Of a stretch of 64,000 nt of DNA, positions 40,423 to 63,638 are shown piece by piece. A program made the translations under genes and the position numbers. The notes under the pieces are model-generated. The model was not told the origin of the DNA. It saw only the letters and a program-made list of their open reading frames with translations, and made no database searches. The stretch is from a virus (lineage: Duplodnaviria > Caudoviricetes): IMG/VR virus record IMGVR_UViG_3300013383_000020, positions 1-64,000 of that record. One strand, 5' to 3'. The stretch's first letter is position 1. The number at the start of each line of letters is the position of its first letter.

Positions 40423-40695
40423 ATGCAAAATAACAATAAATTCGCACTTCCTTGGATTGGAGGCAAGAGAAAAATGAGTAAAAGCAATTATGAAAAATAT
40501 GCTGAAATAAAACAGCAGGAATTATTACATAAAGAAAGGAGTCTGCAACAGGCAATTAGTTGTCTACGGGATAGACGAAAGTTCGCATCATTACAATGTA
40601 TTGACAGTGCAATAGATTTTGTTGCCGACTTATACGATTTATCTATTGATGAAGTGAAACGAGCAATGGATGGAGAAGAATATTGGTGTATATAA
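40423..40695 (+). CDS. Hypothetical protein
   Basis: ORF; likely start ATG 40474 after GGAGG. Confidence 0.55.
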   Translation: MQNNNKFALPWIGGKRKMSKSNYEKYAEIKQQELLHKERSLQQAISCLRDRRKFASLQCIDSAIDFVADLYDLSIDEVKRAMDGEEYWCI

Positions 40696-40816
40696 AACTA
40701 AGATTTCTTGGGAAGAATGGAGGTTGATTTAATGTTAAATGCAAAGGACTCACAGATTAAACTTGAAAAATATTATGCAGATTGTGTAAAATTTTGGATA
40801 AGACAAAACGGAATTA

Positions 40817-41419
40817 ATGAAAGAGAGGTTGATTAGTATGATGAAATACGAAATAGAAGAACCAAAAGGATTTGGTAGTACATGGGTAAATGTAATAGGC
40901 AAAAATGCAAAACAGGAAACAATGGTAATTGAAATTGTGCATTGCGAAAATCCAGGTGGAAACAATTCACTCCCTTATCTGTGGCACAAAAAAGGCTGGA
41001 CAGATAAGGTAATGGAAACTTATATTGGTTGTCATACTTATGTACATGATTCAGAAAATGGCTGTTATGGTGGATACAATGTAACAGAAAAATTTGATGG
41101 AAAGCGAAATGTGATTAACTTTGATTGGCTACTTGAGGACACAGAGGAAAACAGAAAGAAAATTATTGAAGAATGTATTAGATTATTTGAATCTGCTACA
41201 AGTAAAAGTGCAACAGAAAAGAAACTTGAACATGTAATGGAAGTGGCAAAGGAGAGAGGTCTTGAAGTTGTATTTGAATTGCCTGAAGGTTGGAAAAAGA
41301 ATCCGCTTATGACAGATCCTTGGGGAGCTGTAACCATTGACAATGGAAAGCCAGTTTTCATTAAAGTTGGAGATAGGCATAAGAAAAATCCAGAGTATAA
41401 GAGAATGTTATTAATTTAG
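40817..41419 (+). CDS. Hypothetical protein
   Basis: 200-aa ORF with GAGGT RBS. Confidence 0.7.
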   Translation: MKERLISMMKYEIEEPKGFGSTWVNVIGKNAKQETMVIEIVHCENPGGNNSLPYLWHKKGWTDKVMETYIGCHTYVHDSENGCYGGYNVTEKFDGKRNVINFDWLLEDTEENRKKIIEECIRLFESATSKSATEKKLEHVMEVAKERGLEVVFELPEGWKKNPLMTDPWGAVTIDNGKPVFIKVGDRHKKNPEYKRMLLI

Positions 41420-41427
41420 GAAGGAGC

Positions 41428-41958
41428 GTGATGAATATGTTGCCACAGATTCAGTATGACAAAGCATTACTTGGCAAAATGAAAAGCAATTACTTTAATG
41501 CAAAGGCATTATATGAAACCATTAAGGCAAATGCAGAAGAGATTCAGAGAAAAGTTCTTGCAGAGAATGAGTTCTACGAGACAGAAGATGTTGCGGAGAT
41601 GATGGAAAAGAGAGGTGGAACTGGTAAGCCAGAACGGATTCTTGATCCTGATTTAACATATATGATGGATTTAGATAATGAGTTGCCACGATTCATTGAT
41701 TTGTGCTATCCAGAATATGTGAAAGCAGGTATTGCAGATCCAAGAGGTAAAGATTATATACCAGAAGCAAATGCAAAAGATTTGATGTATGAAGCAGAAA
41801 AGCAGCTTGTAGAGTATGGAATTGATATTATTCCTGACGAATTTGGAGAAAAGGAAACTCTTAGAAAGGCAGTACAGATGATTAAGTACAGAGATAAAGT
41901 GCTTGATTTGGTATTGAGATTAGAAAGTACGGAGGTTGAAAATTATGCAGATTATTAG
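41428..41958 (+). CDS. Hypothetical protein
   Basis: 176-aa ORF with AAGGAG RBS. Confidence 0.7.
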   Translation: MMNMLPQIQYDKALLGKMKSNYFNAKALYETIKANAEEIQRKVLAENEFYETEDVAEMMEKRGGTGKPERILDPDLTYMMDLDNELPRFIDLCYPEYVKAGIADPRGKDYIPEANAKDLMYEAEKQLVEYGIDIIPDEFGEKETLRKAVQMIKYRDKVLDLVLRLESTEVENYADY

Positions 41959-42277
41959 AAAAGGAACTACACCAAACGGAACAGATATTCAAATTGAAGA
42001 TTGGAGCGAAGACTATTCTTGTTATAACAAAAATGCAACTATTGGATTTTATCCAATGGCATTAGAAAGTATTTATAGAGAAGATCATCCAGATTAGACA
42101 CCATATCCAAAGAGAGGTGAAACATTCAGAGCTTCATTCGATTTTGAGACAGAAGCGGATGCATTAGAAGCATTTGTATTATTAGAAAATGGTTGTAAAT
42201 GTTTTATGGACTACATAGACCATTTTGCAACCAACGTTATACCAAAAGTAAATTTTATAAAAGCAATTGGCAATTGA
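41945..42277 (+). pseudogene. Hypothetical gene with an internal amber stop
   Basis: GGAGG RBS, ATG 41945, in-frame TAG at 42095-42097, frame continues 59 codons to TGA 42277. Confidence 0.7.
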
Positions 42278-42310
42278 AATTGTAATTTATAGTGAAATTT
42301 TAGAAAGGTA

Positions 42311-42631
42311 ATGGTGAATAGTATGAAAAAAATTATTAACGGAAAGATGTATAACACAGAAACAGCAAAGGAAATTGCTACATGGAGTAATTCATATAAT
42401 TATGGTGATTTTAACTATTGCGAAGAAACACTTTACAAAAAGAAAACGGGTGAATATTTCCTGTATGGTGAAGGTGGAGCATTAAGTAAATATGCAAGAT
42501 CGTGTGGAAGTAACGGAAGTTGTGGCGGCACTGAATTTATTCCATTCAGCGAAAATGAAGCAAAGGAATGGATGGAAAACAATGCAGATGCAGATGATTA
42601 TATTGCAGAATTCGGAGAAGTTGAAGAATAA
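42311..42631 (+). CDS. Conserved phage/ICE hypothetical protein
   Basis: KKIINGK.Y.TETA, ETLY.K.TGEYFL.GEGG..S.Y motifs. Confidence 0.75.
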   Translation: MVNSMKKIINGKMYNTETAKEIATWSNSYNYGDFNYCEETLYKKKTGEYFLYGEGGALSKYARSCGSNGSCGGTEFIPFSENEAKEWMENNADADDYIAEFGEVEE

Positions 42632-42735
42632 TACAGAGAATAATAAGGCAGACGCAAACAAATGTGTCTGTCTTATTTATTAGAAGGAGAATGCGAAATG
42701 AGAGAGTGCATATATGTATAGGAAGGATAGATATT

Positions 42736-61615: not shown

Positions 61616-61963
61616 ATGACAATAGGCGTAAAAATTTGCGAAGCAAAGGATACAGTTAAGAAATATGAAGACCTTGGATATAGATTTGTTGGTGAAGAAA
61701 ATATAGGTGAAGGATATCTAAAACTTATATTCAGAGATCCAGTTGTTTCAGAAGAAAATTTGATTAAAATACCGAATGTTCCATCTACTGTTACAGGTAC
61801 AATTCCAAGAGTGTTTCTTTTTAAAACTGATTTATCATTTGATGATGCTGAAAATATAAGTGACTGGATTTATAAAAACATTAAGAAGGGTGTGCTTGTT
61901 ATCCCAGAATGTGTTGAATTCATAGGTGTAGAAGATTTGTTTAAGACAGAAAGGGTGAAATAA
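61616..61963 (+). CDS. Hypothetical protein
   Basis: AAGGAG RBS, 115 aa. Confidence 0.6.
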   Translation: MTIGVKICEAKDTVKKYEDLGYRFVGEENIGEGYLKLIFRDPVVSEENLIKIPNVPSTVTGTIPRVFLFKTDLSFDDAENISDWIYKNIKKGVLVIPECVEFIGVEDLFKTERVK

Positions 61964-62170
61964 ATGAATAAAGAAAAACAAATTGAGGTATTAGAAGATC
62001 TGAAATCTTATGTAAATGAGGAATGGGATGCTTATGAATATGCAGACGATATAAAGGATGCTAATACAGCATTAGATGCAGCAATTGCTTTGATCAAATC
62101 ATCTAATGTTGCAGGTACATTAACTATAAATGATGAAAGTTATATAGTCCTCAAAGCACAAGAATCATAG
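61964..62170 (+). CDS. Hypothetical protein
   Basis: GGGTG RBS, 68 aa. Confidence 0.6.
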   Translation: MNKEKQIEVLEDLKSYVNEEWDAYEYADDIKDANTALDAAIALIKSSNVAGTLTINDESYIVLKAQES

Positions 62171-62420
62171 ATTTCTTCCGCTTTAACGGAGAATATATAA
62201 ATGAGGTAAAACTAACTGAAAGCCTGAGATGGTGAAAAGGTAAAGGTGAAGGCTGGAAGTAACAAATCAGTCAACCGATGAGCGTATAGGCTGAAATTCA
62301 TTAGAGAATATAACGCCTTGGAACAAACCTCAGTCATGGCATGTAATGATGAGGGATAAGGATGCTCTCATAGAGTACAGAAATGAATGTACTCTTAATT
62401 TAAACAAGGAGGTAAACAAC

Positions 62421-62957
62421 ATGGAATATAAAGAGATTGATTTTCTTTGCGGTTGGACTATTGAACGAGCTGTAAGGGAATTACACGAAAGAGCAAAGGA
62501 TGGTAGTAAATATTGTGGTGAATTCAATGGAAATAAACTGACATCTGATATGTCGCTAGATGAAGCTTATATGCTTTGCATCGGAAAAACTTTTGAACAA
62601 TTTAACAAGGAACAGGAAGAAAGTCGTCAAAGACTGATTCATGAAGAGGAAGAACATAAAAAGAAAATTCCAGAATTATCAAAATATTGGATAGAAGAAG
62701 GTCATAAGGTTTTATCTAAAGATAAATGGGAAATGTGGGATAAATGCGTTCCTATTCGACTTGGAGATCTATACAGAGGGATGGAACTTGGTCAGTGTTT
62801 AGATATTATCAAAACTGTTAAAGAAAAATCTATCCAAGATGGAATTGAGGTTATGAAGAATCAGGGACATTCTGGTATGTCATGGGGATTAATGAAGTCT
62901 ATGGTTAGAGAATTTTGTGATTGTGGAAATGAGTTTTTGGAGCAGTTAGGAGAATAA
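62421..62957 (+). CDS. Conserved phage hypothetical protein
   Basis: AAGGAGG RBS; VPIRL.DLY.GMEL, QGHSGMS. Confidence 0.7.
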   Translation: MEYKEIDFLCGWTIERAVRELHERAKDGSKYCGEFNGNKLTSDMSLDEAYMLCIGKTFEQFNKEQEESRQRLIHEEEEHKKKIPELSKYWIEEGHKVLSKDKWEMWDKCVPIRLGDLYRGMELGQCLDIIKTVKEKSIQDGIEVMKNQGHSGMSWGLMKSMVREFCDCGNEFLEQLGE

Positions 62958-62962
62958 ATCAT

Positions 62963-63244
62963 ATGAAGAAGAAAATTTTAGCAGTTGTATTAGGATTAAC
63001 ATTATGTTTTGGAATGACTGGATGTGCATCATGGGACAGAATGGTAACAGACGTAAAAAGTGATGTAAGCGGCGGTATGCAGAGAACAATTACTGTATAC
63101 ACGGCAGACGGTAAAGAGCTTGCAACATACGAAGGCAAGATTGATATTGAAACAAATGATGGTAGATATGTCAAGTTTGACTACAACGGCAAGAGATATA
63201 TTTATTACAACTGCTTTGTAGAAAGCATTGCAGACATTGATTAA
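62963..63244 (+). CDS. Phage lipoprotein
   Basis: MKKK plus hydrophobic signal plus lipobox MTG-C. Confidence 0.8.
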   Translation: MKKKILAVVLGLTLCFGMTGCASWDRMVTDVKSDVSGGMQRTITVYTADGKELATYEGKIDIETNDGRYVKFDYNGKRYIYYNCFVESIADID

Positions 63245-63412
63245 AAATTTCATTATTGTAGGGCTGTTCAATTCAGATTGACAACGGCATAAACGTGGAT
63301 ACTAGTTGGTGATTTATGTGTCAGTGGGGCTGTACTAGGTTCGAACCCTTTATATGGTGTAAGTGGGCATAACAATAATGAATTAAGTTGAAAATTTTGA
63401 TAATTGAAAATA

Positions 63413-63472
63413 AAAGGTAGTCCTAAAGGTCATTGACAATAGGATAGAGGTTACGGTTCTTAACCATCTGGC
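63413..63472 (+). ncRNA. Repeated small structured RNA motif, divergent copy 3
   Basis: AAAGGTAG-TCCTA..TAGGA-TAGA-GGTTA..TAACC. Confidence 0.5.
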
Positions 63473-63638
63473 TTAAAAATAAGGCAGTAAACGGTTTTAT
63501 AAAAGCCGAAGAATCCGAAGTTTCCTTCGGAATTTTCAAGAGCAAGTCGCTCAAAAATTATAATAAATAAGAGAATATCTAAAAGAAAGGATAATTAGTA
63601 GCTGGCTTTAAAGGTTGCAACCGCTTTGGTACTAATTA

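Follow-up and report, generated by a model that had tools for sequence, protein, structure and literature searches.

Short palindromes with a 6-bp spacer at the gene boundaries of a phage accessory region were analyzed in a 64,000-nucleotide stretch of viral DNA (hereafter, the window), which represents positions 1 to 64,000 of IMG/VR record IMGVR_UViG_3300013383_000020 (Duplodnaviria; Caudoviricetes). We consider it probable that these palindromes function as core-type crossover sites in a tyrosine-recombinase system for address-tagged, in-register exchange of gene cassettes, in which the spacer of each site would act as an address. The evidence throughout is comparative, and it is from this evidence that we infer the participation of a tyrosine recombinase and which one it is.

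The record is a single linear contig of 108,517 bp (32.6% G+C) that is 65% complete according to CheckV. Up to ~37 kb the structural genes occupy the minus strand, and beyond this point there is a long run of mostly small plus-strand genes. Complete relatives have sizes of 156-167 kb, and some carry a provirus flag and have an integrase at the end of the contig; the group comprises large temperate gut phages. Distant homologues of the recombinase encoded within the array are present on contigs of metagenome-assembled genomes (MAGs) from Clostridia/Lachnospiraceae, one of them 378 kb long, and the titles of these MAGs suggest a host from the same taxa. Among the phage records of INPHARED, short matches to the window were found but no close relative. 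Relatives were collected around two anchor genes of the window, the recombinase gene 49807-50838 and the SIR2 gene 58549-59289. The census of sites covered 123 loci (2.23 Mb), the comparison of an invertible segment at 69 kb covered 46 relatives, and the presence of both recombinases was scored in five complete relatives. Public sequencing runs, all used as Logan contigs, contained at most 27% of the sampled words in any run.

Structure and placement of the dyad sites

The preliminary description of the window had listed 13 palindromes with a constant 6-nt spacer at gene ends, and all of the quoted sequences are present at their coordinates. The core GAAW-N6-TTTC occurs in 41 copies on both strands, compared to 14.0 ± 5.0 copies (maximum 28) in 100 dinucleotide-preserving shuffles. 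A scan with a half-site weight matrix revealed 28 dyads above 12 bits with a 6-bp spacer and only 1-7 with each of the spacers of 2-5 and 7-11 bp; since dyads are enriched at 6 bp only, the fixed spacer length is real. The same holds for the relatives, where the 123 loci contain 710 N6 dyads versus 48-120 dyads with N4, N5, N7, or N8, and these 710 sites are built on only ~30 recurrent spacers. The record contains ~25 dyads in total, of which 18 belong to the window, including five that had not been listed before (40437, 56455, 59517, 59667, and 14515). Site density reaches 3.2 per 10 kb in accessory regions versus 0.5 per 10 kb in structural-region loci.

The consensus is a 28-bp dyad with an 11-6-11 build, (c)c-n-a-a/g-(G/T)AA(A/T) N6 TTTC-t/a-t-g/t-g-g. 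According to a half-site matrix that combines the two arms, conservation reaches 75-96% at positions -6 and -4 to -1 and is weaker at the outer positions. In this genome, weak arms were found at sites 40694 and 46750 (left arm) and 42276 (both arms), and the spacers of these weak sites recur as sites in relatives (Table 1).

The sites lie at gene ends ahead of the next ribosome-binding site (RBS), as the preliminary description had proposed. An upstream open reading frame (ORF) of at least 40 codons was identified at 463 of the 618 distinct sites. Its stop codon mostly ends in or just before the left arm, with peaks at -7, -1, and -12 to -10 from the spacer, and at some sites it falls inside the spacer. 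A tetramer resembling a Shine-Dalgarno (SD) sequence follows 6-20 nt past the spacer, and the next start codon is located at a median distance of 27 nt past the spacer.

A hairpin formed by RNA or single-stranded DNA was considered as the selected feature and rejected because folds of single sites are weak and there is no surplus of complementarity in the outer arms (3.66 pairs within a site versus 3.77 ± 0.04 with permuted partners); the outer arms of a site being no more complementary than permuted partners, selection on a hairpin is unlikely. The excess of G.T pairs (423) over A.C pairs (193) in the arms results from the asymmetry of the consensus.

Exchange of cassettes between sites with the same address

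Comparison of gene order between this genome and its relatives revealed that homology breaks at the sites. At junctions with a site, none of the six relatives that hold both sides was collinear, and 155 further cases were one-sided. Across junctions without a site, 59 of 67 relatives were collinear. At site 49137, the homology of 19 relatives begins 3-31 bp past the site center. In all-against-all comparisons, 257 of 1345 and 188 of 1355 distinct breakpoints were located within 20 bp of a site center, compared to 28 and 20 expected.

The flanks of each of the frequent sites are reassorted among relatives. For the spacer GTTCGA (site 57411), 13 left and 10 right flank clusters were found in 21 combinations; the corresponding values are 12, 11, and 24 for GCGGAA (site 60859), 11, 14, and 26 for CATAGA (site 62162), and 14, 11, and 27 for CCGAAG (site 63511). 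Complete quartets with all four combinations of flanks were observed in 35 cases. Each arm covaries with the flank on its own side, and reassortment of flanks is observed only around shared spacers. When sites with the same spacer and different flanks are compared, the median extent of identity beyond the spacer is 4 bp on the left side and 5 bp on the right, which defines a shared core of ~15 bp (4 + 6 + 5). Ordinary homologous recombination would require a longer core, and since assembler k-mers also exceed this length, assembly chimeras are an unlikely cause. The preliminary description had suggested looking for breakpoints inside the spacer itself; breakpoints are indeed enriched at the sites, and the exchange is placed in the ~15-bp core that contains the spacer, a finer position being beyond the reach of comparative data.

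All copies of a given recurrent spacer point in the same direction along the array, and the order of addresses is invariant, with no conflicts among 2017 ordered pairs. In the region of the window, the order is gaactg, caagag, cgatga, cggaaa, taatag, ccaagt, tttaac, tgacga, aattgc, the recombinase gene, gtcaag, attctc, gttcga, acttcg, cgcaca, the SIR2 gene, tatttt, gcggaa, cataga, and ccgaag. Two strong sites with one address were not found in any locus, although spacer uniqueness within a genome is not significant on its own (~1.4 chance coincidences expected in 2825 pairs). The spacer is thus conserved at each position, and exchange partners always share the same spacer, contrary to the earlier proposal of a recombinase tolerant of non-homologous spacers.

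The slots between neighboring addresses hold 5-9 unrelated contents each, ranging from 172 to 5772 bp. The ATTCTC>GTTCGA slot, which here contains the single gene 57132-57407 bounded by sites 57097 and 57411 exactly as first described, has seven unrelated contents of 188-959 bp, and the GCGGAA>CATAGA slot has eight contents of 270-5772 bp. Of 66 families of cassette heads, 45 keep to a single address; for the majority of the remaining families, the addresses differ by a 1-nt spacer variant. The earlier view of the accessory genes as mobile cassettes at recombinase sites is therefore supported with regard to the swappable, promoterless cassettes and to the breakpoints, reassortment, and inversions at the sites, and it has to be corrected with regard to the mechanism.

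Invertible segments with matching spacers

Two segments enclosed by sites with reverse-complementary spacers were found in both orientations among relatives. The first lies beyond the window, between sites 69215 (GAAT-CCAATC-TTTC) and 69514 (GAAA-GATTGG-ATTG), which carry one spacer in opposite orientations and represent the only such inverted pair among sites above 13 bits. Both orientations of this 286-bp segment (69.2-69.5 kb) are represented among relatives with 94-97% identity, and the inversion break falls exactly at the left edge of GAAA-gattgg. In addition, contigs from two pig-gut runs contain the flipped ('opposite strands') junction 69230/69513, with 14 letters common to both sides. 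In silico inversion between 69215 and 69514 produced an in-frame fusion of the PAPS-reductase-like gene 69712-70197 with an N-terminal ORF of 69 codons. In the orientation seen here this gene is 'off', its first 69 codons being inverted on the minus strand at 69187-69396 (switch 69215-69527; 5215-5527 in relative L002). In more distant relatives the gene is unbroken and without any site.

An identical overlap in the two partner sites is the defining requirement of the lox, FRT, and dif sites of tyrosine recombinases. At the 69-kb switch, the relatives have four spacer pairs in which the partners are exact reverse complements: CCAATC/GATTGG in most of them, CAACGC/GCGTTG in L026, GTAACG/CGTTAC in L033, and CGAAAC/GTTTCG in L028. 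Since the partner spacers covary, they fit the need for matching overlap regions in strand exchange, and this covariation is, at the level of sequence, a signature of tyrosine-recombinase strand exchange.

The second pair, 59517 (GAAA-TATTTT-TTTC) and 59667 (GAAA-AAAATA-ATTA), has a weak arm, and its spacers are also reverse-complementary. The 136-bp segment between these sites is flipped in relative L101, whereas 26 relatives have it in the orientation seen here. It is located just upstream of the C5 cytosine methylase ORF 59652-60752. The segment (59531-59666) is 82-93% identical in relatives regardless of the gene behind it, and in its prevalent orientation it ends with TTGACA, 17-18 nt ahead of an AT-rich stretch in the fixed arm. 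Based on these sequence features, the segment may be an invertible promoter or leader for the gene in the slot. The methylase 59652-60752 matches PF00145 only from profile position 62, and motif I, which binds S-adenosylmethionine, is missing; a search of the record for the missing N-terminal part was negative. The same switch in L101 is followed by a 477-codon ORF that has the motif I-like sequence ...ELCSGIGAQ... directly past the site.

Candidate recombinases

Two tyrosine recombinases with full catalytic sets had been reported in the window, and both of them match PF00589 and contain the catalytic residues. In the product of 49807-50838, the residues R54, K84/K87, H229-x-x-R232, H259, and Y268 are invariant in eight homologues. 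The first catalytic arginine is already at residue 54, and hence the protein has no N-terminal core-binding domain; ~115 residues are inserted between the lysine hairpin and the HxxR motif. An AlphaFold model of medium confidence (mean predicted local distance difference test score, pLDDT, 69.8) matched the folds of IntI, XerA, and XerH, with an integron integrase as the weak top match. These fold matches support the recombinase family and are uninformative on the inserted region. A phmmer search of the protein against PDB sequences gave no match, a profile being required, and MrpR was not among the profile or fold hits in the PDB.

The product of 22032-23066 has an ordinary two-domain build, and its R, HxxR, H, and Y residues align with those of XerA (4a8e). 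It did not match the IntI models TIGR02249 and NF011946, to which the 49807-50838 protein scored 22.6 bits (cut-off 265) and 21.6 bits (cut-off 435), respectively. Both recombinases scored far below the NCBIfam cut-offs for XerC/D/S/A.

The 49807 family was found inside the array in every relative fetched, including all five complete relatives (37-47% identity). Among the latter, the 22032 type is 100% identical in one, 68% identical in a second, 32% identical over a part in two, and absent in the fifth. Directly upstream of the recombinase, a gene for a Zn-ribbon-like protein (49228-49527 in the window) is present in 28 of 30 loci, whereas the DUF6618 gene is present there in none of the 30. 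The Zn-ribbon-like protein has conserved CxxC...H...C...C residues in the window and in relatives L051-L079 and belongs to no Pfam family; it may contribute the DNA-binding function missing from the recombinase. We favor 49807-50838, with its conserved Zn-ribbon neighbor, as the candidate enzyme of the array with slightly more confidence for than against, because its family is inside the array in five of five complete relatives and the 22032 type is missing or unrelated in three of five. The 22032-23066 protein appears less likely to be the array enzyme.

Proposed mechanism of exchange

In the proposed mechanism, a site would consist of two inverted ~11-bp arms, with the conserved inner (G/T)AA(A/T) ... 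TTTC, around a 6-bp overlap that is specific to a genome position and would act as its address. Because the addresses within one genome all differ, its sites would not recombine with each other, and deletions would not arise. When two related phages meet in one cell, either by co-infection or through superinfection of a cell with a resident prophage, same-address sites would synapse and exchange strands inside the 6-bp overlap. A single crossover would swap everything on one side of the site, whereas two crossovers at different addresses would swap one slot, which amounts to a natural, in-register form of recombinase-mediated cassette exchange. The site lies between a stop codon and the next RBS, and therefore any cassette in the slot would be expressed from the long early operon. 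Where two sites of one address are placed head to head, as at 59.5-59.7 kb and 69.2-69.5 kb, the intervening segment would flip.

In its most specific form, the proposal reads that a small tyrosine recombinase without a core-binding domain, possibly with a Zn-ribbon partner, serves at least 30 orthogonal addresses of fixed order along the accessory genome in a family of large Lachnospiraceae phages, so that relatives exchange accessory genes one slot at a time and keep their own genomes free of scrambling and deletion, and that some sites are re-used head to head as on/off switches of genes. For this combined statement, which draws on genome comparison, we regard the evidence as evenly balanced.

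Alternative explanations

Several observations weigh against the interpretation of the palindromes as crossover sites of an array-encoded enzyme. All of the relatives are metagenome assemblies, and the data that would connect the enzyme with the sites are comparative. Approximately three quarters of the megablast breakpoints lie away from the sites, and breakpoint hot spots without a site are located at ~51200, 52260, 58540, and 59290, as well as at ~59680; ordinary mosaicism is therefore also at work, and these hot spots appear to reflect either another type of recombination or a degenerate site. Variants of spacers that differ by 1 nt exist, and ~9 cassette families were found behind two different addresses, representing either rare cross-address events or split or fused slots. 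Examples of such address pairs are CGATGA/CGGAAA, TTTAAC/TTCGAC, and ACTTCG/TTCACG. Conservation of the arms is poor outside the inner 4-5 bp. The absence of a core-binding domain from 49807-50838 is unusual for a sequence-specific tyrosine recombinase, and no such dyads, nor any other obvious dyad with an N5-N8 spacer, were found within 10 kb of its distant homologues (37-44% identity) on four Clostridia/Lachnospiraceae MAG contigs. Finally, neither within-sample recombinants nor cassette exchange were seen in the contigs of four runs, where assembled contigs only were available; these contigs include pieces that begin at site 60859 and several short-sided joints that are uninterpretable.

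The sites could be true recombination sites with another catalyst, either the host Xer recombinases, as at pdif, or the 22032-23066 protein, and the array-embedded enzyme would then be uninvolved. The dif/pdif sites have the same 11-6-11 geometry and 6-bp overlap (PMC13141974), and such a division of roles would suit both the two-domain, Xer-like build of the 22032 protein and the 49807 protein, which has no core-binding domain and has distant homologues in loci without arrays. We nevertheless find this explanation unlikely, as the 22032 type is absent or unrelated in three of five complete array-bearing relatives, all of which carry the 49807 family inside the array, and as host Xer would need to act on dozens of sites during infection. 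Less likely still is a mainly regulatory palindrome, an operator or inter-cistron hairpin, at which borders arose by homologous, microhomology, or copy-choice recombination, as in the promoter early stem-loop (PeSL) elements of phages. The fixed placement between stop and RBS, the single orientation relative to transcription, and the many breakpoints away from sites would all be in line with it, and PeSL provide a precedent for modular shuffling mediated by repeated regulatory motifs (PMC2839356). However, identity at the exchange point is limited to ~15 bp, the outer arms bear no trace of hairpin selection, and flips between 14-bp inverted identities in near-identical relatives typify site-specific recombinases; moreover, a regulatory role explains neither position-specific spacers of fixed order nor the four covarying versions of partner spacers at the invertible segment.

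An integron-like system, in which a spacer-tolerant recombinase would excise cassettes as circles and insert them into any of the sites, had been the preliminary suggestion, and we consider it very unlikely. Promoterless, site-bounded cassettes, the cassette families behind more than one address, and the integron integrase as weak top fold match of the recombinase model would agree with it, but most cassette-head families keep a single address or differ from it by 1 nt, the address order is never violated, and the directly repeated same-address sites needed for excision are present in no genome. Furthermore, the 28-bp sites lack the selected folding of attC, no attI-type entry site is present, and the IntI models score far below their cut-offs. 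The other early suggestion, an array of operators for a recombinase-fold repressor similar to SPbeta MrpR/YopR, in the manner of SPBRE sites or stoperators and without a role in recombination, is extremely unlikely. Although dispersed intergenic sites of a single orientation resemble stoperators and a recombinase-fold repressor is documented in SPbeta (PMC10516654), MrpR lacks the catalytic residues that both recombinases keep here, the sites are placed between stop and RBS instead of in promoter regions, and the breakpoints, reassortment, inversions, and spacer covariation would all be unexplained. Binding at the sites could still have regulatory side effects.

Locations of sites and additional features

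The locations of sites and enzyme genes in the window are given in Table 1. At the less certain site 56455, two relatives align across the site, and a TGGTAG variant holds the place of GGGTAG in the order of L057 and L076.

Table 1. Dyad sites and recombinase genes in the window
Feature	Location	Strand	Remarks
Dyad site, spacer TTCGCA	40430..40457	+	Site 40437; 5.6+9.8 bits in half-site scan
Dyad site, spacer CTAAGA	40687..40714	+	Left arm holds stop of gene 40423-40695; spacer is a site in L051
Dyad site, spacer TTGTAA, both arms weak	42269..42296	+	Spacer is a site in L071, L073, and L074
Dyad site, spacer GAACTG	42911..42938	+	12 recurrences in relatives
Dyad site, spacer CGATGA	44337..44364	+	9 recurrences; 7 left, 6 right flank clusters
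Dyad site, spacer TAATAG	46743..46770	+	20 recurrences; homology of 7 relatives stops here
Dyad site, spacer CCAAGT	49130..49157	+	Ahead of Zn-ribbon/recombinase operon; 19 recurrences
Candidate enzyme operon	49228..50838	+	Zn-ribbon 49228-49527, DUF6618 49521-49805, tyrosine recombinase 49807-50838
Probable dyad site, spacer GGGTAG, less certain	56448..56475	+	Site 56455; 9.4+5.7 bits
Dyad site, spacer ATTCTC	57090..57117	+	Left border of one-gene cassette 57132-57407; 22 recurrences
Dyad site, spacer GTTCGA	57404..57431	+	Right border of cassette 57132-57407; n=33 including this genome
Dyad site, spacer TATTTT	59510..59537	+	Site 59517; left partner of invertible 136-bp segment
Partner site, spacer AAAATA, outer arm degenerate	59660..59687	-	Site 59667; reverse-complementary to TATTTT
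Dyad site, spacer GCGGAA	60852..60879	+	n=29
Dyad site, spacer CATAGA	62155..62182	+	Spacer holds stop of gene 61964-62170
Dyad site, spacer CCGAAG	63504..63531	+	n=30
Left-arm dyad site, spacer GTGCAA (+ strand reading)	14287..14314	-	Site 14294; one border of tRNA-Ser pair
Left-arm dyad site, spacer TGACTC	14508..14535	-	Site 14515; other border of tRNA-Ser pair
Left-arm dyad site, spacer GCCAAA	18718..18745	-	Site 18725; consensus match
Second tyrosine recombinase, usual two-domain Xer-like build	22032..23066	-	PF00589

In the left arm of the window, sites 14294 and 14515 enclose a pair of tRNA-Ser genes (14314-14491). Relative G004 has only 14236-14530 in common with the window here (96% identity), both sites included, with unrelated flanks, and the homology of G003 stops at 14305, within site 14294. 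By its sequence, this unit looks like a tRNA cassette. The address of site 18725 was not found in the relatives fetched, and the anchor 18868-19779 yielded only relatives of at most 62% identity that are without left-arm addresses.

The heptamer GAGAATA was found in 87 plus-strand copies in the whole record, compared to ~28 expected under a third-order Markov model; examples in the window are located at 42936, 60887, 62189, and 62950. The heptamer is co-oriented with genes, with plus copies in the plus-strand gene region and minus copies in the minus-strand region. Its context is often GGAGAATAA, in which the SD sequence of the next gene overlaps the stop codon TAA of the previous gene. About half of the copies begin with AGAG, a poor SD sequence, and the heptamer may be a separate signal.

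Behind the recombinase gene, a minus-strand gene for a Cro/C1-type helix-turn-helix protein (50884-51096) is divergent from a MazF/PemK-like toxin gene (51259-51642), which is followed by a small ORF (51642-51896). As judged from these similarities, the region 50884-51896 is a possible toxin-antitoxin or immunity module. The 732-codon ORF 53477-55675 has a match to sigma-70 region 2 (residues 40-95) and a weak match to GmrSD_N below the Pfam cut-off (residues 279-423); a rough gene caller splits this ORF, which may represent two genes or a fusion.

Comparison with known systems

A full-text literature search revealed no description of such a system in phages, which does not prove that there is none. 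Among the described systems, the closest is that of the dif modules of Acinetobacter Rep_3/OrfX plasmids, which are recombined by XerC/XerD (PMC13141974, PMC6449649, PMC9455709). The dif and pdif sites have an 11-6-11 build with a 6-bp overlap, and recombination takes place between identical spacers (PMC13141974). Both systems have discrete accessory modules between such sites and a highly variable module content in a conserved backbone. In contrast to the plasmids, the carrier here is a temperate phage of ~160 kb with ~25 sites in a 65%-complete record. The sites here are co-oriented, whereas pdif sites alternate between C/D and D/C; their addresses have a fixed order across genomes, and they are located between stop and RBS inside operons. 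The phage array also encodes an unusual recombinase of its own, and its arms were not recognized as Xer-type, host dif not having been compared.

In heterospecific lox and FRT sites, which are used for engineered cassette exchange by Cre/loxP and FLP/FRT, a single recombinase family acts on many sites whose only difference is the spacer, and only those with identical spacers recombine. As in the present array, unlike spacers in one molecule block deletion, and two unlike sites define an exchangeable slot. The phage array differs in being natural, in having 6-bp rather than 8-bp spacers and dozens of serial addresses, and in its arms, which are far less conserved than the 13-bp lox arms. Inversion switches of tyrosine recombinases include those of FimB/FimE, the invertons of Bacteroides, and the Rci shufflon, in which the sfx sites share one spacer. 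The 59517/59667 and 69215/69514 pairs behave as such switches, one of them carrying the 5' end of a gene, but here the switches are a by-product of a larger array of direct sites with unlike spacers.

The array shares with integrons the promoterless cassettes of one or a few ORFs, the upstream transcription, and a tyrosine recombinase encoded nearby. Clusters of attC have been reported in phages (PMC9892861). Unlike integrons, the array has no IntI-type integrase and no attI site, its cassettes keep their slots and order, and its sites are 28-bp duplex-type dyads with a conserved inner sequence instead of folded attC sites of 57-141 bp. The PeSL of T4-type phages combine a sigma-70 promoter with a terminator hairpin and recombine by homology between copies of the same sequence (PMC2839356, PMC4122927). 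In both cases, repeated intergenic motifs border shuffled ORFans in the hyperplastic accessory regions of large phages; however, PeSL extend over ~50-70 bp of one repeated sequence, whereas the sites described here have a ~15-bp core with an individual center in each copy, inversions, and covarying spacers. MrpR of SPbeta is catalytically dead and represses by binding ~10 SPBRE sites with a 15-bp motif in promoter regions (PMC10516654). Dispersed short intergenic sites in a large temperate Firmicutes phage and a protein with the tyrosine-recombinase fold are common to SPbeta MrpR or stoperators and the array (PMC10516654). Unlike the MrpR targets, the sites here appear to be crossover points, and both recombinases are predicted from their residues to be catalytically intact.

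Implications for phage evolution

Mosaicism of phage genomes is usually explained by rare illegitimate or homologous recombination followed by selection. A large part of the mosaic in the accessory (early) genome of the phages analyzed here follows defined sites, each with an address specific to its position. If the proposed mechanism is true, gene exchange among related phages would be organized, frequent, and in register, as a viral counterpart of the plasmid dif modules and of engineered cassette exchange between lox variants. It would also explain two phase-variable phage genes, and the dozens of orthogonal sites for one recombinase would make a useful genetic tool. For gut phages, it would provide a testable account of how a combinatorial stock of ORFan, anti-defense-type, and modification genes is maintained.

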